Shown: positions 12,577-34,505, counted from the stretch's first letter. The stretch is DNA of 64,000 nt from an uncultured Chloroflexia bacterium (GCA_963765765.1 CAVXYC010000023.1:384001-448000), one strand, 5' to 3'. Made by a program: numbers and translations. Notes: generated from the letters alone by a model not told the origin.

Positions 12577-12652
12577 CGTCGGAGTACCACTTCGCCCTTC
12601 GGCGTAGGTGAATTCCTGTTCGTTCCGCCGAGTCCTCGTACAATCGTCTGCC

Positions 12653-14119
12653 ATGTCCGGGACACCAACGCTTCTTCTCCGACCTTACACGACCGCCGAT
12701 CACGATGCCGTCATGGAGGTTCACCGACTAGGGCTCCAGAACGCCGGCCGAGATCCTGAGCCGGGGCCCTGGGATGCTGATCTCGGGCATATAGAGGATT
12801 ACTACCAGCGAGCTGGCGAATTTCTGGTGGGTGAGTGTGACGATCGTATCGTCGCGATCGGGGGGCTGCGCGTCCTGCCCTCGGGTGTTGGAGAGCTGAA
12901 GCGCATGCGCATCCACCCTGAGTATTTCGGACGAAGCTACGATCAAATGCTCCTCGATACGCTAACCGACCGCGCGCTGGCGCTGGGGGCGAATCGACTA
13001 TTGTTGGACATCGATGAGCGACGCGTCCCCGCGCAAGAGCTTTACGTCCGCAATGGCTTCGTTCGTCAGGGCACGCTGGTGGTGGGTCGCACTCCGAGCA
13101 TCATCTTCGAGAAGCCGCTCGATGCTGAAAACACCGACGATCTCGATGCGCTCCTGGGCAAAACCCTCATAGAGGCAAATCTCAGCGGGATCGCGGTGGC
13201 CTGGCGGCGAGCCCACGTGGATCCCGTCATCAAGATAGTGAGCAACGATATTCACGGTGCTCCACTCACCACTGACGCTCTGTACCCAACAGCGTCGCTC
13301 ACAAAACTCACCGTCGCGTTAGCGATACTGAGACTCGTTGACCAGGGTGCACTTGATCTCGATGCGCCTCTGAAGCACGTTCTTCCCGAGGCAGCCGCCG
13401 AACGAGCTACGCTGCGCAGCTTGCTCTGCCATACGGCCGGGCTGCCAGAAATGCCGATGGTCACGGTTGGAACCTGGCGGGAGATTGGCCCATCATGCTT
13501 GACCACCCCACCCGAGCATGAGCCCGGCACTCGGGTGCTCTACAGCAACCAGGGATACGGGCTGCTGGGTATTGCGCTGGAGCGCGTGACCGGGCGACCC
13601 TTCGGCGAGGCGCTCCGATTGCTGGTGATCGAGCCGCTTGGTCTGGATGCGCACGTGGCAGATGCGCTTCTACGCCGGCCAGTGCAGGGCTGGAAGTTCA
13701 GGGTGCTTCCCGCCGGCGGCGTGTTCATGACGATAGAGGCGGCCTTGATGCTCGTTGAAGCCTTCAAGAATCCACCGATCGGGTTTCTCAGCGAAGCGCT
13801 TGTCTCCGCCGCGACCACCGACCAGACGGGCGGTGTGCCTGGCGGGGTGAGCCCGCGGATGCAATGGACGAAGTGTCCTTGGGGCCTAGGTCCCGAGATC
13901 CACGACGATCGCTATTCACTCTGGATCCCGCGCTCAGCCGGCGCTTCGTCCTTCGGGCACGCCGGTGCCAGCGGCTGCGTTGCCTGGTGCGACCCAGAGG
14001 TCGACGTCTCCTGGGCCATCCTGACGGTACCGCCAAGCGATCGCTCCGCAGACATCCGTTGGCACCTTCAAAGCCGCCCGAATCTAGCGGATATCGGCGA
14101 AGCAATCCTCACTCAATAG
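12653..14119 (+). CDS. GNAT acetyltransferase fused to a beta-lactamase-family serine hydrolase
   Basis: N-part GELKRMRIHP...AQELYVRNGF; C-part ASLTK (SxxK), LLCHTAG, YSN (YxN), FGHAGASG. Confidence 0.8.
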   Translation: MSGTPTLLLRPYTTADHDAVMEVHRLGLQNAGRDPEPGPWDADLGHIEDYYQRAGEFLVGECDDRIVAIGGLRVLPSGVGELKRMRIHPEYFGRSYDQMLLDTLTDRALALGANRLLLDIDERRVPAQELYVRNGFVRQGTLVVGRTPSIIFEKPLDAENTDDLDALLGKTLIEANLSGIAVAWRRAHVDPVIKIVSNDIHGAPLTTDALYPTASLTKLTVALAILRLVDQGALDLDAPLKHVLPEAAAERATLRSLLCHTAGLPEMPMVTVGTWREIGPSCLTTPPEHEPGTRVLYSNQGYGLLGIALERVTGRPFGEALRLLVIEPLGLDAHVADALLRRPVQGWKFRVLPAGGVFMTIEAALMLVEAFKNPPIGFLSEALVSAATTDQTGGVPGGVSPRMQWTKCPWGLGPEIHDDRYSLWIPRSAGASSFGHAGASGCVAWCDPEVDVSWAILTVPPSDRSADIRWHLQSRPNLADIGEAILTQ

Positions 14120-16414: not shown

Positions 16415-17706
16415 TTACACCGGCGCTAGCATGCCCTCGCGGTGCTGCTCCAGGAAGCGTTCGAAGTTTCCGTGCTCGGAGACCGCGTCGTACGATCGGA
16501 TGCTGTAGACGTCCCCGTTGTAGGGCGCCATGGGGGCCTTGCCTTCCTTCAGATCCTTCGCCATGCTAAGCAGCCGCCGTCGGACCGAGATGATGGCCAG
16601 ATCCGATGTCCCTAGACGCTCACGCGTACGGTCCATGACTCGGCCCATTCCTTCCGTCATCGCTCGATCCTGTGTCGGCACTCGGAAGATACCTGTGTAA
16701 TTGCGCGTGCGCTGCATCTCGCGGTCCATCAAGTAATCATTCGACTTCTTGGTCTGCGGATTCCAGATGGTGGTTACGCCGCCTTCAGGAAAGTGGACGG
16801 GGCCGTAATCGTTTTCCCGCTCCCATGCCTTTCCGTAGCCAAACGCCTCGTTTTCATCGTCCGTGATCGGTCGGTCGGCCCGGTAGCGGAAGCTGAATAC
16901 CGCGGTGTGGTAGTCATCGATCGGTACCCAGGCGCGACCCGTCACCGGCCAGCTTTTGTTCGCAATGATCGTGTGAAACGGCATGAGCCATTGCGTCACA
17001 CGCCAGTTGTAATTGCCATCATGCGTGTCGTACCGACCACCGTACGCCATGCCATAGTCCGTGTGATGCGTGGAGAGTCGCGGAGACTTGGTTGCCATGA
17101 CCTCAAACCGGCGGGAGGTCTGCATGAGCGTCCGGGTCGGTCGCCGAGTGGAGAAACATGCTGTGCGACGTATCGATGTCGCCTTCGAGTGCCTGCAGCC
17201 AATTGCAATCGGCCAGCCATACGATCACCGAAAGATGGCCATCTGGAACCAATGTCCACTCGAGCCGTGGAAGCTCGGGCTCGAGGTCCGGGGGGCCCAT
17301 GTAAATCCAGACCACTCCAGCTTGCTCTCTACCGGGGTACGCGGCTCACGCGGACCTTGTGCTTGAAGTTGCTCTCGAGTGGCTCATTGGGCATGTCCAC
17401 GCACGCGCCGGAAGTATCAAACTTCCAGCCGTGATAGACGCATCGGAGTCCTTCTTCCTCGTTACGGCCGAAGAAGAGCGAGGCGCCGCGATGCGGGCAG
17501 TTCTCAGCGACGAATCCTATCCTTCCGTTCGTATCGCGGAATGCGACGAGCTGCTCACCCAGAATTCTCACCCGGACTGGCGGCGCGTCCGGCTCTGGAA
17601 TCTGCCGCGAAAGAAGCGCCGGCACCCAGAAACGGCGCATCAGCGCACCCATAGGCGTTCCCGGACCAACCTGAGTCACAAGCGCGTTGTCTTCACGTGT
17701 CAGCAT
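16415..17706 (-). CDS. Rieske non-heme iron oxygenase, phthalate 4,5-dioxygenase/LigXa-like (two frameshifts)
   Basis: CPHRGASL...CVYHGW Rieske motif, NWLQALEGDIDTSHSMFLH iron motif, QDRAMTEGMG; pieces 17329..17706, 17103..17315, 16415..17125. Confidence 0.9.
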
Positions 17707-19547: not shown

Positions 19548-20004
19548 GGTGGATTTCCTTCCTATCAGGGTGGATCAATAAACTCAGTCACGCCACCCGC
19601 TATGTTTGACTCAGGCTATTCGCTACTTCAGATATGGGCCGGCAACCGCGGGATTAGGACGTCCAGTTGTACTGGGTGTTTACCGTTGTACTTCGGAAAG
19701 CGGCGTTACGCGGAATATCATGCCGACTCGAACTGCCACCGAGGGGTTTCCGAAACGTGCGGGCCTTCACCCGGGCGACATAAGCCGCTTGATTGCTTTG
19801 GGCGGAACGATGCTAACAGAAAGTGCCTATCGAATTCGCCGGAAAGTAGCGTTGTAGCAACGTTCACTGAACATTCTTTACGTAACATAGGAGATGATGC
19901 GCCTGGGAGGCGCGCAATGCCATAGACTTCATAGGGAGACTGCCTATCGCGATGATCGTGAGGCTGCTCTCCTGTCCCCTAAAGTTTCCGAAGAGGTGCG
20001 CCAA

Positions 20005-20295
20005 TTGACCTACGTCATCGCCGAGCCCTGTGTCGATGTGAAGAACAAGTCGTGCGTCGATGTCTGTCCCGTGAGCTGCATTTATATCGAAGACGACACG
20101 GTCGACCGTACGCTGTACATCAATCCTGATGAGTGCATTGACTGTGGAGCCTGCGAGCCTGAGTGCCCCGTGAACGCGATCTTCGAGGGCAGCTCGTTGC
20201 CGGACAACTGGAGCGAATACGCTGCGCTCAATGCCCAGTGGTTTGAGGATAAGGACGCGGTTCGCGCGAGAATCGACGAGATAAAGCCAGCGTAG
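20005..20295 (+). CDS. Ferredoxin (FdxA-type dicluster)
   Basis: TTG start after GAGGT; TYVIAEPCVDVKNKSCVDVCPV...ECIDCGACEPECPV. Confidence 0.95.
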   Translation: MTYVIAEPCVDVKNKSCVDVCPVSCIYIEDDTVDRTLYINPDECIDCGACEPECPVNAIFEGSSLPDNWSEYAALNAQWFEDKDAVRARIDEIKPA

Positions 20296-20403
20296 GCACC
20301 CATCGGCCGAGCCGATTCGTACCGAGCCACACCTGAATTTGCAGCGGATTTCAATTCAGGTGTGGCCACGGCGGGATGCAATTCCGCTTACCGCAACGTC
20401 CGC

Positions 20404-20841
20404 CTAGGTCAAGTGCATAATCTCCAGCCCGCCCCACGCGTCGCGCAAGTACTCGGCGACCAGGCGTCGGTGGCAATGATGAGGCTGATCCTCGCTGCAC
20501 AACAGCACGCTGCCGTCTATCTGCTCCGGCAAGACCGCCCGATCGATCTCGCGCTCGCGCAAAAGGTCTAAGAACTTTCGCTCGTAAGCTGGCCAGCCTT
20601 CGCCTTGCTTCCGGTATGTGTCCAGTAATGTCTGAGTAGGCGCGAGAATCGGCAGGTGCAAGTAGTCCATTTCGCAGATCTCGCGCAGGAAGTACTCGAG
20701 ATCTTGCCGCTTCGCAAAGCCGGCAAGCTGCGACACGTTGTTGAGACGCACGTCAAGCAATCGTTGCGCACCCGATTCGCGCAACAGCGTGAAGAAGGTT
20801 TCGGCGGACTTCTTCGTAAAGCCGATCGTGTGAACTTTCAT
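20404..20841 (-). CDS. DUF488 domain protein
   Basis: TIGFTKKSAE, LLDVRLNN.SQLAGF, LLCSEDQPHHCHRRLVAEYL. Confidence 0.9.
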   Translation of the reverse strand: MKVHTIGFTKKSAETFFTLLRESGAQRLLDVRLNNVSQLAGFAKRQDLEYFLREICEMDYLHLPILAPTQTLLDTYRKQGEGWPAYERKFLDLLREREIDRAVLPEQIDGSVLLCSEDQPHHCHRRLVAEYLRDAWGGLEIMHLT

Positions 20842-21022
20842 GGCACCACTGTCTCAATTTTCCGATTGACGTGAGCGATGCGTCTCGGGATTGAGCGTGC
20901 AACCCTCGGCAAGCACGTGACGCACACCGTACTCCCCGCTGAGAAAATCCTGTCATACCGCGATTTGGATAGACGGTGAAGCTGGTGGCCACGCATCACT
21001 AACTTCCAGGTCGGCCGCTGTG

Positions 21023-22849
21023 TCAGGCGCCAAGCACTCGCACGCCTGACTTCAATGACCACTCGCCGAGCTCAATGATCCCGACGCTCTCGGAGTTTCG
21101 GTAGCGATCCAGCCAGGCGCGATCGTGGGTCGTGAGGATGAGACGACTGAACCGCGGAGCTTCCCGCACGAGCATGTCCATGAAGCGGTCAACGTGCGGC
21201 TCGTCCACGGACGTCACCACGTCGTCCAGAATGACAATGCTGCGATCTGTGGCGAAACGTTTGGCCATTGCCAGAAAGACGCAGATCCCAAGCGTGTCGA
21301 GATGAGATTCACTGTAGTACGCCTGCGGCGGAAGATCGTCACGATCCTGAAATCCGGCATCCAGCTCTATGGAGCTCGATGCTTGCCGCTTCAGCGCAAA
21401 GCGTACGCGGCCCAACGGCTCGTCCGGGTGAATGCTGGAGTACAGGCGGCCTACGTCATCAGCCACGGCATCCAGGATGTCCTCGGCGTACTGCTTGCGC
21501 TCAGTGGAAACTCGATGAAAGATCGCCTCCATGCGGCGCAGCAGTGTGCGCTGACGGGACACGCTCCCGGCCAGCGAATCCACTCGCTCGGCGGAGAGGC
21601 GAATGGCCGAATGCTGGTTCAGGGCTCGCTGCGTCGACTCGCGTCGCGCGCCTAACGCCTGGATCAGGGGCGCCGTCGCGTCCAATGCGGCGCGCGCCTC
21701 CGCTTCGGCTGTCTCTGTCGCTTCGCCCTCACGCGACAGGATGCTATAGGAGCTCCAGCTCACTGGCATGGCTAGCACCTCGTCCAGGTGGCCTCGGTTG
21801 ATAAGCCGCATGGTGGCCCTGGCACGCTCACAAAACGCCGCGCGAGCGTCCTCCAGTACGGCTGAGCTGCGCGTGAGCTGGGTCTCCGCCACACTCGTGG
21901 CCTCAATGGCGCTCATGAGCTGCCCGGCCCGAGCGATTCGTTGCTGCAATCGGTCGTGAACGGTATCCGCTTCGATAGACTGCTCACACACCGGGCAGTT
22001 CCGAATCGTTCGCCATGCACCGATGAACGCCTCGGCGTCGCGCAAGAGCTCCAGGAGCTCTGCTGCTTGCGGCGACTGAGCGCTCGCCTGCTGGCGTTGC
22101 TCGCGAGCTGTGCCATGCGCCTGACTGGATTGGCGGTAGCCTTGCGAAGCGCGATCGAGCTGGCCGCGCGCTTCTATTGCGGAGCGATACGCTGATTCAA
22201 CGTTGACCATCTCATCGATGGCAGCTCGCATCTCGATGAGATCTTGTCCCGCCTGACTCATGGCCCAGTCGTGGGCGTTGGCGCCTGGACGCCCCTCAGC
22301 CTGCCAGAGCTGCTGCAGCGAGTCCTGCGCCTGAGCAAGCAATTGGGCATCGGACTGGTACTGGCGGTCTATGGCGCGAACGGCCGACCGAAGCGTAGCT
22401 TCCGATCTCTCGATGCCGGGGAGCGCCAGATAGTCCTTTAGCGCCTCGTAGCGCTTGCTTGGCGGCGCCTCGATGACGTTCGTAACATCGCGCCTTCGCA
22501 GAATGTGCGCGTCCGGGCAACCCTCTTCAGGATCTACCATAGGCCCGCGGCGACCCAGCGAAGCGGTCCAGGAAGATCCATCGTCGGCACGTAAGTGCAC
22601 GGAGAGTCTCTCGGGTGATGATCCCAGCGAAGTTACGTGCTTGCGAGCGGATTCACCGAGTCCGAGACTGTAGTTCTCGAGCGATCCGAAATTGCGGTTA
22701 CAGAGGAAGTCGAAGGCATCCACGATGGTGGACTTGCCGGCTCCGTTCTCTCCATAGAGCAGCACCACTGGACGCTCGGAATCCAATCGCACCGACACCG
22801 GCACGGTGGCCCCGCGAAACCCGCTGAGCCCGAGCTCAGTAATTCGCAT
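21023..22849 (-). CDS. Rad50/SbcC-like ABC ATPase with coiled coils and zinc hook
   Basis: GFRG, Walker A GENGAGKST, central CPVC, signature YSESH, Walker B IVILDD, H-loop TTH. Confidence 0.9.
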   Translation of the reverse strand: MRITELGLSGFRGATVPVSVRLDSERPVVLLYGENGAGKSTIVDAFDFLCNRNFGSLENYSLGLGESARKHVTSLGSSPERLSVHLRADDGSSWTASLGRRGPMVDPEEGCPDAHILRRRDVTNVIEAPPSKRYEALKDYLALPGIERSEATLRSAVRAIDRQYQSDAQLLAQAQDSLQQLWQAEGRPGANAHDWAMSQAGQDLIEMRAAIDEMVNVESAYRSAIEARGQLDRASQGYRQSSQAHGTAREQRQQASAQSPQAAELLELLRDAEAFIGAWRTIRNCPVCEQSIEADTVHDRLQQRIARAGQLMSAIEATSVAETQLTRSSAVLEDARAAFCERARATMRLINRGHLDEVLAMPVSWSSYSILSREGEATETAEAEARAALDATAPLIQALGARRESTQRALNQHSAIRLSAERVDSLAGSVSRQRTLLRRMEAIFHRVSTERKQYAEDILDAVADDVGRLYSSIHPDEPLGRVRFALKRQASSSIELDAGFQDRDDLPPQAYYSESHLDTLGICVFLAMAKRFATDRSIVILDDVVTSVDEPHVDRFMDMLVREAPRFSRLILTTHDRAWLDRYRNSESVGIIELGEWSLKSGVRVLGA

Positions 22850-23021
22850 CGGCCGGCAATGTGCTGAGGTCCTGTTGCACCTCGTGCACCCAATCGTCCG
22901 CCGTCATCGTTCCATCGGCCAGCCGCTGGCTGATTCGTGCAAGCGTCTCATCGCCCAGCAGGTCTTCGGCACGCAGCGCAGCGATGATGCGATCGGCCAC
23001 CTGGCGATCTGAGGCGCTCAT
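22836..23021 (-). CDS. 61-aa helical hypothetical protein coupled between toxin and ATPase
   Basis: ATGA overlap with the PemK stop and 14-nt overlap with the ATPase start; amphipathic helices. Confidence 0.7.
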   Translation of the reverse strand: MSASDRQVADRIIAALRAEDLLGDETLARISQRLADGTMTADDWVHEVQQDLSTLPADANY

Positions 23022-23365
23022 TGTGTCCCTGCAACAGCGAATAGGCTTCCAAGCGCTGTTCTCACGGCAGACTGGTCGTTCAGCCCGAGTTGGCCCAGGT
23101 TCTCAAGAATCAGCCGATCGTCCAGTGTGAAAAGTTTGAGCCGTACGACTGACGCGTGATGAAGACCAGCAGCTTCCAGATCTTGGACTCGATGATCGAG
23201 AGGCCATGCGCTGTGGTCGGCGGAGGTGATCATGGCCAGCACAGCTTGACTGACCGAGCTCAATACAACCGCCGACGAGATGATCAGTGCTGGCCAGCGT
23301 GTCGTCGCTTCACGGTCGGCAAACGGGAGCGGAAGACGGACAAGGTCGAACCGCTCACAAGTCAC
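23018..23365 (-). CDS. PemK/MazF family toxin
   Basis: ERFDLVRLPLPFAD...RWPALIIS...AMITS...AAGL...SVVRLKLFTLD; GTG start overlaps the antitoxin end. Confidence 0.85.
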   Translation of the reverse strand: MTCERFDLVRLPLPFADREATTRWPALIISSAVVLSSVSQAVLAMITSADHSAWPLDHRVQDLEAAGLHHASVVRLKLFTLDDRLILENLGQLGLNDQSAVRTALGSLFAVAGTQ

Positions 23366-23585
23366 GGTAGGCTTCGTCATCCTCCGGGGAGCTCCACTCG
23401 CTCAGCGTGGACTCCAGGCCCCGTAGGGGCTCTATGTCGAGCGGATGCGCACGCCGAACCGCGACTCGACCATCTTCATGCACGTCCCAGACGATCGAAT
23501 CGCCCGGCCTCACAGATAGTGCAGTCCGCACCTCACGGGAAACAGTGGTCTGCCCCTTAGATGTGATCTTCGCGACGGCAATCAT
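23355..23585 (-). CDS. AbrB/MazE/SpoVT family antitoxin
   Basis: AKITSKGQTTVSREVRTAL...PGD; tail LSEWSSPEDDEAYRDL. Confidence 0.9.
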   Translation of the reverse strand: MIAVAKITSKGQTTVSREVRTALSVRPGDSIVWDVHEDGRVAVRRAHPLDIEPLRGLESTLSEWSSPEDDEAYRDL

Positions 23586-23595
23586 GTCCGAACTT

Positions 23596-23621
23596 CTTAC
23601 GTCCTTACCGCCGTACCTTAC
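23596..23621 (-). promoter_or_regulatory. Three GTAAG direct repeats upstream of the antitoxin, candidate operator
   Basis: CTTAC on + strand at 23596, 23604 and 23617. Confidence 0.45.
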
Positions 23622-23793
23622 CATCCATTGTCTGCCTGCTCAGAATTGAGGACCTTCGAAGTGAGCGATGATGGATGCCATCGGGCGGGTAAAAGCCGCC
23701 AATCGAAGGGGCTTGACCTTCACGCGGAGGTCGTCCGAAAACGCAGACCCGCCACGGTCGACCGCGCGGGGGTAGACCCCAGAGACGTAGACG

Positions 23794-24916
23794 TTACCGA
23801 TAAACCCCGTTATGACCAAGGCTGATCTTGCCCGGTTGTGGGAAATACGTGAGGCCATGGGGGCCCGCGCCGGTGCGGATGCGATGCAGCAGGCCTCCGT
23901 TGTTTGAGTCCACCACGTCTACCCAGCCGTGATAGCGTGACGAGACCCAAATTTGCTGCCCGTCCGGGGATACCTGCACCATGTCCGGACTACCGCCGAT
24001 CCGCCACGTCTGAGCGATGCCGACCGCTTCCACGTCGATGACGGAAATCGAACCTGCCAGACGATTCGTCACGTAGATAGCCCGCGCATCGCGACTTATA
24101 GCCATGCCGTGCGCACCCGCGCCAGTGGGTAGGAAGGCGATCTCGCGCATCGCTTCCGGGTCCACCACGGAGACTCCGTTTCGGCCCTGGTTGCAAACGT
24201 AGAACACGTCGCCAAGCGGGGAAAGCTTTACGTCGACCGGCAGCCCGCCCACGCGGACCACACCGGCCACCTGCATGTTGTGGACGTCCACCTTCACGAA
24301 TTCTCCGCCGAACTCGCAGCTCACCATGAGAAACGAGCCATCGGCTGAGAAATCCGCATGGTCCACACCCCGCCCGGGGATCTGCAAGCGTCGTAACGGC
24401 TCCCAGGTGAGGATGTCGTAGAAGTCCAGCCGATTGAAGTATTCCGCGGCCACAATTGCCTTGGTGCCGTCAGGCGAGAAGTAGAGGTTGTACGGAACAG
24501 CCGCCGGAATGCTATGCGGCCACGCGACCGGAGTGGATATCGATCACGGCAAGCCGGTTGGAATCCATCACGTTGACCATCAAGCTGGACATGTCCGGCG
24601 ACGGACCAACGTGATGTGGCGTGCGCCCGACGAAATAGCGATCGACCACCTGCATGGAGGCCGGGTCAATGACCGCAACGTCTCCGCCGAGCTCGTGGGG
24701 CACGTACACCCGCGGCGGCAGGTCGCGCAGCGCAGGATTGATGAATTTCTCACTGATCGTGTTGGCGTAGACATTGAAAGGGGCAGGCGATGGTTCGGCA
24801 ATTTGCGGCGCGGGCGCCTCCCGCTGGGCGCCCAGCGCGGGTCTTGGGAGCGCGGCCAGGGCCAGGCTTGCGCCAAGGCCACGAGCGAACTGGCGGCGGC
24901 TAATGGGGTCGGGCAT
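23794..24916 (-). CDS. Tat-exported YVTN/YncE-type beta-propeller protein (frameshift near 24510)
   Basis: SRRQF twin-arginine signal; repeated YVTNR, FYVCNQ, SPDG, GAGPHG blades. Confidence 0.85.
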
Positions 24917-25042
24917 AACGTCGCGAATTCTAGTGCGCGCTTGTCGCGGCGGCCAAGAATTCGGGTTGCATTCAGGTTGGATGTGAGCCTGCAAACCAAC
25001 GGAAACTAGCCGCTCCCACCGGCCACGTGACACAATTTACCC

Positions 25043-33623: not shown

Positions 33624-33704
33624 ATCCGAGCGATAATAGATTTCGGGAGCGGGGCCGATCGTGCCACAACTCAGCATGCCCGATTCCATGGCGGCAAGTT
33701 GCAC

Positions 33705-34505
33705 ATGCCGAAGCAGATGGACGCTACGAACGAGCTTTCAAGACACGAGCTAGTCACCCAGCTTCGCGAGATTGGCGTACAGCAAGGCAGCGTTTTAGTC
33801 GTTCATACGTCGTTTCGAGCAGTGCGTCCTGTTCAGGGCGGACCACTCGGACTCATCCAATCACTCCTTGAAGTCCTGGGTCCGAACGGAACACTGGTAA
33901 TGCCCGCCTGGCCGGCGGACGACAAGGCACCGTACGACCCGATCTCGACACCCGCCTCACCAGACTTGGGGATCGTCGCGGACACATTCTGGCGGCAGCC
34001 CGGAGTGGTGCGTAGCAAGCACGTGAATGCATTCGCCGCGCTAGGTCCGCATGCGCACGACGTGAACGTCGATGTGTTCCCTCTGCCGCCTCATATTCCG
34101 GAAAGCCCGATCGGTCGCGTGCACGATCTGGACGGTCAGGTGCTGCTTCTGGGAGTTGGCCACGATGCCAACACGACGCTGCACCTGGCTGAAATCATCG
34201 CGAACGTTCCGTATCGCATCCCACGAACGTGCACGGTGTACGAGAACGGCCACCCCATCCAGGTCGACTACGGCGAGAACGACCACTGCTGCGAGCGATT
34301 CAGCCTGGTCGATGAATGGCTCCGTACGCGCGGCCTTCAGTCAGAAGGCCCAGTTGGTCACGGTCATGCTCGGTTGATGCGCTCGCGAGACGTCGTCAAC
34401 GTAGCATGCGAAGCCCTCGCACGCGATCCGCTGATCTTCCTGCACAGGCCCGAGGAAGGCTGCGACGACTGCGACGAGGCTAGGGCCAGTATTCGAAGCT
34501 CATAA
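33705..34505 (+). CDS. aac(3)-IV: AAC(3)-IV-like aminoglycoside 3-N-acetyltransferase
   Basis: GTLVMP, PDLGIVADTFWR, DGQVLLLGVGHDANTTLHLAE, ENDHCCERF, EGPVGH, RDPLIFLH, GCDDCDEAR match AAC(3)-IVa as I recall it. Confidence 0.85.
   Translation: MPKQMDATNELSRHELVTQLREIGVQQGSVLVVHTSFRAVRPVQGGPLGLIQSLLEVLGPNGTLVMPAWPADDKAPYDPISTPASPDLGIVADTFWRQPGVVRSKHVNAFAALGPHAHDVNVDVFPLPPHIPESPIGRVHDLDGQVLLLGVGHDANTTLHLAEIIANVPYRIPRTCTVYENGHPIQVDYGENDHCCERFSLVDEWLRTRGLQSEGPVGHGHARLMRSRDVVNVACEALARDPLIFLHRPEEGCDDCDEARASIRSS

Follow-up and report, generated by a model that had tools for sequence, protein, structure and literature searches.

The locus considered here lies at 20404-23624 on the minus strand of the window, that is, the whole stretch of 64,000 nucleotides analyzed from an uncultured Chloroflexia bacterium. 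Its five open reading frames (ORFs), all present in the ORF calling and the sequence read-out, encode an AbrB/PrlF-like antitoxin, a PemK toxin, a 61-aa protein, a zinc-hook ATPase and a DUF488 protein. We consider it probable that the locus represents an independent type II toxin–antitoxin (TA) pair placed upstream of a cassette of a small protein and a zinc-hook ATPase (RloC/LmuB-like), which has no effector and is still under selection. The conserved unit consists of two genes only, that is, the 61-aa protein and the zinc-hook ATPase, in a translationally coupled cassette. The AbrB-PemK genes appear to be an ordinary type II TA pair, probably independent of the cassette and found beside it in this lineage only. 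The features of the pair and of the cassette are the following:

23596..23621, minus strand: three GTAAG direct repeats, spaced by 13 and 8 nt, which immediately precede the likely antitoxin start
23355..23585, minus strand: AbrB/PrlF-like antitoxin, 76 aa from the likely ATG at 23585; the longest ORF runs from ATG 23624
23018..23380, minus strand: PemK/MazF-family toxin, 120 aa, with an ATG start and an alternative GTG at 23365; its stop overlaps the next gene (ATGA)
22836..23021, minus strand: 61-aa helical protein, the small same-strand partner ORF of the ATPase
21023..22849, minus strand: Rad50/SMC-like ABC ATPase, 608 aa, recognized from Pfam, PADLOC, NCBIfam, the alignment of its homologs (A1), an AlphaFold2 (AF2) model and Foldseek
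22730..22753, minus strand: Walker A motif GENGAGKS (G33-S40), with residues invariant in A1
22370..22426, minus strand: outgoing neck helix of the ATPase, residues 142-160, predicted contact of the 61-aa protein; E150, R154 and A156 are invariant in A1
21986..21997, minus strand: zinc-hook CPVC (C285-C288) at the coiled-coil apex, from A1 and the AF2 model
21488..21547, minus strand: returning neck helix, residues 435-454, predicted contact of the 61-aa protein; R451 is invariant in A1

The independence of the TA pair is indicated by a syntenic metagenome-assembled genome of the same genus (L001), which carries the small gene and the ATPase at the corresponding position but no TA pair. Its gene order is PAC2, an intact 390-aa YNCE gene, 281 nt, the small gene and the ATPase (613 aa, 70% identity), with no AbrB or PemK. 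The DNA alignment of the window with this relative at the insertion site showed no recognizable insertion scars, the intergenic DNA being unalignable. The contig of the relative ends 574 nt past the ATPase (L001:4700-5273) in low-complexity, repeat-like sequence, the probable cause of the break in the assembly.

The wider family agrees. Window PemK and AbrB gave no tblastn match in 111 ATPase loci, and a PemK profile built from nine sequences matched once in 113 loci (1.02 Mb), in a locus (L100) which shares with the ATPase merely a 45-residue P-loop stretch and is not a true homolog. The earlier note had taken the TA pair, the ATPase and DUF488 as one system, which these results do not support, and had named a constant lack of PemK/DUF488 beside ATPase homologs as the observation that would speak against it; for PemK this is what was observed, and in the 113 loci neither PemK nor DUF488 was found beside true homologs. 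Among 20 PemK homologs at E ≤ 1e-10, none comes from contigs of 7551 or 13059 nt, the sizes of the ATPase contigs of two close relatives (P0002 and P0004), although this word-indexed search is an indirect one. PemK-like genes occur elsewhere in 8/10 genomes of the family, with matches to the antitoxin tail just upstream in two of them. In a metagenome scan for relatives of the ATPase, the homologs among the matches listed were all of ≤44% identity.

The small ORF is the constant companion of the ATPase. Seventy loci have a match that reaches the ATPase N-terminus, 69 of them with at least 250 nt upstream, and in 64 of these 69 a same-strand ORF of 44-96 aa ends within 80 nt of the ATPase start. 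An alignment (A5) of the 36 visibly alike small proteins, from which more divergent or N-terminally extended ones and the subfamily of L081, L084 and L091-L094 were excluded, shows an invariant W44 and nearly invariant G37 and D43. A profile of the small protein retrieved 1050 cluster representatives at E ≤ 1e-3, of which 321 reach E ≤ 1e-10, and the best 150 matches are all free-standing proteins of 56-100 aa. The protein has no family in Pfam, NCBIfam or PADLOC, and the Atlas look-up returned unnamed clusters only (63-64 aa, scores 0.81-0.84).

The earlier note had proposed that the complex of the two proteins be predicted. The resulting model supports binding, with an interface score (ipSAE) of 0.76 vs 0.02 for the best of three controls. 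A value of 0.76 is attained by 58 of 80 solved complexes and by 2 of 110 mismatched pairs, counts that are rough since own alignments were used. At least 95% of the contacts are common to the runs, and the predicted local distance difference test (pLDDT) of the partner is at least 82. In the modeled interface, residues 142-160 and 435-454 of the ATPase, that is, the head-proximal helices, meet residues 1-22 and 33-52 of the small protein, with W44 in the center. The 61-aa protein is thus predicted from the model to be a real partner of the ATPase, clamping the head-proximal neck of its coiled coil. Kleisin N-termini presumably bind SMC necks at an equivalent place.

In distant homologs (L081, L084, L091, L092, L094, L135:8139-8324 and L136:5845-6024), a different upstream protein of 59-65 aa was observed. 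Its N-terminal helix carries 'I.D.F', a DW motif is missing, and the protein seems to represent a second, analogous partner subfamily.

The ATPase is a Rad50/SMC-type zinc-hook ABC ATPase. Pfam AAA_21 and AAA_23 match above the cut-off and SMC_N below it. In A1, G33, E34, N35, G36, G38, K39 and S40 of Walker A are invariant, and the motifs of an ABC head as known from RloC (GENGxGKS, SESHLDTLG, LDD and H575) are also invariant, as are C285, P286 and C288 of the CPVC. The AF2 model (pLDDT 86.8) consists of a head lobe (1-118), outward helices (146-278), the CPVC loop, returning helices (294-473) and a C-terminal lobe (481-608). The CPVC is located in the loop 279-293 between the model helices 262-278 and 294-351, that is, in a coiled-coil zinc hook of the kind described for RloC. 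By sequence, the closest solved proteins are Rad50 and SMC heads, with Rad50 heads of the PDB scoring best (2e-9). Foldseek returned cohesin, condensin, Rad50, Lamassu LmuB and Wadjet JetC at 1e-13 to 1e-8 with no single winner. In PADLOC the ATPase matches LmuB (PDLC03859, 1.8e-18, residues 146-585 only) and mad3 (6.7e-15). A Rad50-like zinc-hook ATPase with no SbcD/Mre11 gene adjacent had been proposed in the earlier note; Pfam, the sequence matches to solved structures, AF2 and Foldseek agree with the former part, and for the latter the domain scan found no Mre11/SbcD phosphoesterase domain in the neighboring ORFs scanned.

Most relatives of the ATPase are longer. Among 74 homologs, the six closest (67-100% identity) have 604-615 aa, whereas most of the others have ~760-825 aa and cover the whole query. 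A typical relative of ~787 aa has 161-187 extra residues at its C-terminus, as given by the tail lengths in A1. The 33 aligned tails share one invariant histidine, within RNxxGxH, followed by a CxxC...CxC ribbon. The AF2 model of the tail has a pLDDT of 90.9. In a structural search of 48,161 chains it matched 2hsb with a Z of 10.0 (root-mean-square deviation 2.6 over 116 residues), SsR10 with 8.8, Csm6 with 8.0 and HEPN-MNT toxins with 7.9 and 7.8, all in the range under ~13 in which a Z can reflect a common helical arrangement. Sacsin, AbiA, LsoA and RnlA are also among the best matches. Fold and motif taken together suggest that the C-terminal tail of the relatives is a HEPN-fold domain with a zinc ribbon.

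The window ATPase stops at the ATPase head and has no such tail, so that the anticodon nuclease expected of a RloC is not there. A tblastn search with nine tails found no HEPN remnant in the window, in L001 or in L008, and in L054 the HEPN domain was found in another frame. A tree was built with FastTree from the 68 matches of at least 590 aa, the six shorter fragments being dropped, and was rooted at the midpoint. In this tree, forms of ~600 aa occupy at least seven separate positions among forms of ~780 aa, and the window clade of six is uniformly short (604-615 aa). The window clade has lost the HEPN domain.

The HEPN-less cassette is nevertheless still under purifying selection, because the ratio of nonsynonymous to synonymous substitution rates (dN/dS) against the same-genus copy amounts to 0.13 in the ATPase gene and to 0.30 in the small gene (0.07 in PAC2), values that are rough as dS is near saturation.

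The neighbors of the ATPase in other genomes show where the family belongs. In 54 loci the ATPase match spans at least 400 residues; both flanks reach at least 3 kb in 30 of these loci. Within 6 kb in these 30 well-flanked loci, a DrmD-like SNF2 helicase was found in 19, a type III methylase (Mod) in 18 and a type III Res in 16, with PADLOC scores of 3.8e-212 (DrmD), 3e-221 (MTase_III) and 7.5e-215 (REase_III). Variable genes lie in between, that is, Schlafen/AlbA_2, DUF2130, AIPR, HNH, GIY-YIG, HigBA and AbiE. The link of the ATPase with defense suggested in the earlier note is therefore borne out for the family elsewhere, by the DrmD-like SNF2 and type III restriction-modification (RM) neighbors and by the HEPN fusions.

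A recurring cluster was observed in the order DrmD-like SNF2, variable inserts, 60-aa protein, zinc-hook ATPase-HEPN, type III Mod and type III Res. It is represented by L002-L021 and L051-L075 (e.g., L002:42-13157), in 16-19 of the 30 well-flanked loci, and comes from Nitrospirota, Acidobacteriota, Proteobacteria, Deinococcota and others. No name or description of this five-gene arrangement or of its small subunit was found in the literature searched, and a reappraisal of Dnd systems and an RM review contained nothing resembling the pair of small protein and ATPase. The earlier note had likewise not recognized the combination in the window as a named system, and none was found in PADLOC or in the literature searched.

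In the genome of the window (92% complete), no match to the DrmD-like helicase was found. The corresponding search for REase_III also gave no match, but its control was silent too and the result says little. Among kin the ATPase is rare: 2 of the 39 genomes of the order have it, as do 5 of 401 sampled from the phylum (including the unpublished G174). Two genomes of another Chloroflexota family (G077 and G054) have forms of 652-656 aa with a gene of 59-61 aa upstream, and these pairs sit among ABC transporters, tRNA synthetases and glyoxylate-cycle genes.

The TA pair itself is of a common kind. The toxin matches Pfam PemK_toxin (PF02452) at 1.6e-9, with 38.3 bits vs a cut-off of 23.1, over profile positions 1-108 of 109, and the source databases name its homologs mRNA interferase MazF. 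The matches of the antitoxin fall just below the Pfam cut-offs for PrlF_antitoxin (1.8e-7, 31.7 bits vs 32) and MazE_antitoxin (4.4e-5, 23.8 bits vs 24.7). In NCBIfam it matches the PrlF family at 1.3e-9 and the AbrB domain at 2.9e-4 (20.5 bits vs a cut-off of 28.3). These matches to PrlF, MazE and AbrB below the cut-offs are consistent with one another. Neither PemK nor the antitoxin has a PADLOC family match, and for PemK no solved structure was matched by sequence at E ≤ 1 except noise. The G+C content at third codon positions (GC3) of PemK is 0.58 vs 0.68-0.75 in the neighboring genes.

Upstream of the pair, the GTAAG repeats reported in the earlier note are present in three copies. The pattern GTAAG-N3-9-GTAAG has two matches in 64 kb, both at 23596-23621, where 0.14 are expected; 2 of 100 shuffles reach two. 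A soil-metagenome contig of ~95% identity lacks 8 nt at 23594, inside the repeats. The repeats are probably noncoding, because this 8-nt deletion would break the frame from ATG 23624. The antitoxin start is more likely ATG 23585 than 23624, and the sequence suggests that the repeats are probably a candidate operator of the TA promoter.

The genes of the pair and of the cassette are closely packed. The antitoxin stop (23355-23357) overlaps the start of the PemK gene, the ATGA at 23018-23021 is shared by the PemK stop and the start of the 61-aa gene, and the stop of the latter (22836-22838) falls 14 nt within the ATPase ORF. The gap between the ATPase and DUF488 genes is 181 nt. These coordinates and junctions, already given in the earlier note, were recovered by the ORF calls. 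A scan of 19800-24600 revealed neither a sigma-70-like promoter nor an intrinsic terminator and so gave no operon boundaries. Short Logan contigs from soil metagenomes do not span the junction of PemK and the small gene, and an odd joint from 22754 to 23449 is too weak for use. Contigs from an RNA library reach the ATPase and the AbrB/PemK junction; this does not demonstrate transcription, since DNA may persist in such a library.

The fifth gene of the locus is the following:

20404..20841, minus strand: DUF488 protein, from Pfam DUF488 and PADLOC PDC-M45C

It matches Pfam DUF488 at 2.4e-21 (77.1 bits vs a cut-off of 22.2) and PADLOC PDC-M45C at 8.7e-72 over positions 1-144 of 145. The gene was found once only in the genome of the window. 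DUF488 was found in none of the 113 ATPase loci, nor was it found in G012 (92% complete), of which contig C291, carrying the ferredoxin ortholog, is homologous to the DUF488/ATPase region in the ferredoxin alone. Orthologs of 81% and 77% identity lie on Joint Genome Institute contigs of 7551 and 13059 nt, the same sizes as the ATPase contigs P0002 and P0004. DUF488 and the ATPase therefore probably share a contig in these two close relatives, as deduced from the equal sizes, which could represent synteny by descent. In G017, G015, G014 and the unpublished G018, the same type of DUF488 follows a second DUF488 (PDC-M45B type), and in G017 and G015 the two are also preceded by a double AAA+ ATPase; none of the window's neighbors is found at these loci. 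A search for the PDC-M45B-type paralog in the genome of the window found the C-type gene only (2.6e-6). PDC-M45A gave no match among the scanned proteins, as judged for the ATPase from the best 25 of its 49 PADLOC matches. No solved relative of DUF488 was found by sequence. In the literature searched, nothing was found for PDC-M45 or DUF488-N3, and no published function of DUF488. PDC-M45 reportedly originates from a study of Pseudomonas hotspots.

In relatives of the family, the arrangement with the double AAA+ ATPase is seen in L128:6260-9782 (minus strand) and L129:3067-7128 (plus strand), where an ATPase of 832-855 aa (PADLOC IetA, ~5e-80) is followed by two tandem DUF488 paralogs (PDC-M45B and PDC-M45C). 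The conservation of DUF488 is unusually high: 145-aa proteins named from Acidobacteriota, Saccharothrix, Meiothermus and Calidithermus share 65-70% identity with it. Of the 8000 candidates scored in the search, at least 7996 matched at E ≤ 1e-20.

By analogy with RloC and PrrC, the ATPase-HEPN protein of most relatives would be an abortive, second-line RNase, gated by the reading of the DNA state by the ATPase; the sensing of DNA by the ATPase would belong to this scheme. In the window clade, the sensor/ATPase module would remain without a fused effector. Given the overlap of the PemK stop with the 61-aa gene, transcription from the TA promoter probably continues into the cassette. The coupling of the TA pair with the cassette has the appearance of an insertion accident and would not be a conserved design.

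Several results weigh against an independent TA pair beside an effector-less cassette of a defense family. The HEPN assignment is founded on fold and motif, with the tail's Z scores of 8-10 in the range noted above; Foldseek ranked HEPN proteins first, weakly (best E 0.11), and Pfam recognized in the tails PaREP1 alone, in 2 of 33 sequences. PaREP1 is a family which we take to belong to the HEPN clan. The complex was modeled as a monomer with one partner, and the real assembly is probably dimeric. The housekeeping setting of the pairs in G077 and G054 fits a nondefense role equally. The genomic context was read directly for one close relative (L001) only, and the absence of PemK in P0002 and P0004 relies on unequal contig sizes in a word-indexed search. 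The ATGA junction of PemK and the 61-aa gene is closer than a random insertion would predict. With the probable sharing of a contig by DUF488 and the ATPase, and no terminator found in between, a unit of three genes is conceivable.

Four other explanations were weighed. In one of them the four genes from AbrB to the ATPase are one system, in which the effector has been swapped: the HEPN-less ATPase and the 61-aa protein would sense DNA ends or invaders and control PemK, perhaps by sequestering or releasing the toxin or the antitoxin. The overlapping stops and starts of the four genes, the failure to find a terminator-like site and the RNase folds of both the lost HEPN and PemK are consistent with it, as are, weakly, the RNA-library contigs that touch the ATPase and the AbrB/PemK junction, where DNA is possible. 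It is very unlikely, however: the L001 short form (a small gene and a 613-aa ATPase, dN/dS 0.13) exists without a TA pair, PemK accompanies true homologs in 0/111 and 0/113 loci, the contigs of P0002 and P0004 yielded no PemK, the GC3 of PemK is atypical, and this toxin already has a cognate antitoxin. A unit formed by the small protein, the ATPase and DUF488, the last acting in trans as effector or cofactor of the HEPN-less ATPase, is judged rather unlikely. The DUF488 gene follows on the same strand after a gap of 181 nt in which no terminator-like site was found, its orthologs are on contigs equal in size to those of P0002 and P0004, and it matches the defense-candidate model PDC-M45C of PADLOC (8.7e-72); relatives carry this DUF488 type elsewhere, so the site in the window is not the ancestral DUF488 locus. 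On the contrary, the shared contig is deduced from sizes alone, adjacency not being seen, and among close kin the gene order may reflect descent. G012 keeps a selected cassette and has no DUF488 (92% complete), 0/113 ATPase loci have one, the C-type gene pairs elsewhere with a B-type paralog and a double AAA+ ATPase, and the literature searched holds no published function for DUF488.

The pair could also be a housekeeping SMC-like complex of DNA repair or chromosome handling, kept in few Chloroflexota and not involved in defense. The S21, DnaE, Rieske oxygenase, HtrA-like protease and PAC2 genes around it, the short-form pairs of G077 and G054 beside transporters, tRNA synthetases and glyoxylate-cycle genes, and the purifying selection on the pair would all suit such a role; the patchy distribution (2/39 genomes of the order, 5/401 of the phylum), the want of an adjacent nuclease partner and the HEPN-fused, RM-embedded state of the nearest relatives make it unlikely. 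A decaying RloC-like relic, which has lost its RNase and has no present function, appears improbable too. It would account for the loss of HEPN without a remnant, for the lack of a DrmD-like helicase match in a 92%-complete genome and for the two other genes of the window that look frameshifted, whereas the dN/dS values of 0.13 and 0.30, the intact Walker A, Walker B, H-loop and CPVC, the constant short length in a six-member clade of 67-78% identity and the origin of short forms at least seven times in the tree argue against decay. We thus retain the reading of an independent TA pair upstream of a selected, HEPN-less cassette. That the HEPN-less sensor and its 61-aa subunit nonetheless govern adjacent effectors, be it the PemK RNase upstream, the DUF488 enzyme downstream or both, is unlikely. 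If true, this would be a natural swap from fused to operon-encoded effectors and would tie SMC-type DNA sensing to a classical TA.

The composite of TA pair, ATPase and DUF488 is most likely an accident of neighborhood. The more general result is a widespread, unnamed family of 60-aa proteins which almost always precedes an RloC/LmuB-like zinc-hook ATPase. Should the small protein act as a minimal kleisin-like regulator, the family would offer a compact model of an SMC-type sensor gating an abortive RNase behind a restriction system, and the HEPN-less clade would be a natural separation-of-function variant, with the sensor and without the effector.

The other neighbors in the window are housekeeping genes, that is, ferredoxin, a response regulator, a YNCE propeller, PAC2, S21, DnaE, a Rieske oxygenase and an HtrA-like protease. 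The YNCE-like beta-propeller gene (23794-25033, minus strand) is broken into two ORFs (24512-25033 and 23794-24453), with a frame change at ~24516-24518 by tblastx. Its counterpart in L001 is one intact gene of 390 aa, and the split reflects either a pseudogene with a frameshift or an indel of the assembly. At 16415-17706 (minus strand), a Rieske ORF (17329-17706) and a LigXa_C-like ORF (16415-17125) lie ~200 nt apart and resemble the halves of one Rieske oxygenase alpha subunit, which may be a second frameshift in the window. Two common genes of soil bacteria are unconnected with the locus: an Antibiotic_NAT aminoglycoside 3-N-acetyltransferase family protein (33699-34505, plus strand, 1.4e-53) and a fusion of GNAT with a beta-lactamase fold (12608-14119, plus strand).

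Compared with known systems, the TA pair resembles MazEF/PemIK in having a putative AbrB/SpoVT-fold antitoxin gene that overlaps a PemK/MazF toxin gene, with repeats upstream. It differs by the divergence of the toxin, whose stop runs into a non-TA gene downstream. The match of DUF488 to PDC-M45C extends over the full length, whereas the B-type paralog that precedes the C-type in relatives is missing from the whole genome of the window.

The ATPase shares with SbcCD/Mre11-Rad50 the zinc hook of a Rad50-type protein; it differs by having no adjacent Mre11/SbcD gene, a much shorter coiled coil and a patchy distribution. For Lamassu, the comparison draws on the PADLOC models, the PDB entries 9hqu, 9hqx and 9uxh and the search listing of PMC12663957. 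The PADLOC run proposed in the earlier note gave LmuB, partially, as the best match of the ATPase (relatives 5e-27 to 7e-31), PDC-M45C for DUF488 and nothing for PemK, the 61-aa protein or AbrB, LmuC included. The fold of the ATPase matches LmuB chains at 4e-11 to 1.5e-9 in Foldseek, and an SMC-like sensor with a small accessory subunit is common to both. On the other hand, cohesin, condensin and Rad50 equal LmuB in Foldseek, no LmuA-type effector gene is present, and the effector of the relatives is a fused HEPN and not a separate LmuA.

The closest comparison is that with RloC (PMC2610378, PMC3710099), in which a Rad50-like zinc-hook ABC ATPase carries a fused HEPN-type anticodon nuclease with the triad R-x3-E-x36-52-H (PMC2610378), as stated in the portions of these papers drawn on here. 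The family shares with it an ABC head interrupted by a coiled coil that bears a CXXC zinc hook. According to the same portions, it also shares the C-terminal HEPN-fold domain of the 787-aa relatives, within the 658-897 aa of RloC, the occasional to frequent linkage to type I/III RM and weak matches to Pfam AAA_13. The differences lie in the window protein, which has no nuclease domain of any kind and reaches 19.0 bits in AAA_13 vs a cut-off of 36, a score that some relatives pass (L024 51.3, L009 37.7 and L010 36.7), and in the conserved 60-aa partner gene, which those portions do not mention for RloC. The linkage to DrmD-like SNF2 and type III RM is 19/30 here vs 8/73 for RloC, and the HEPN of the relatives carries RNxxGxH in place of the R-x3-E...H triad, both on the RloC data given there. 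Because the triad differs and the AAA_13 match is under the cut-off, the family is RloC-like and is not RloC itself.

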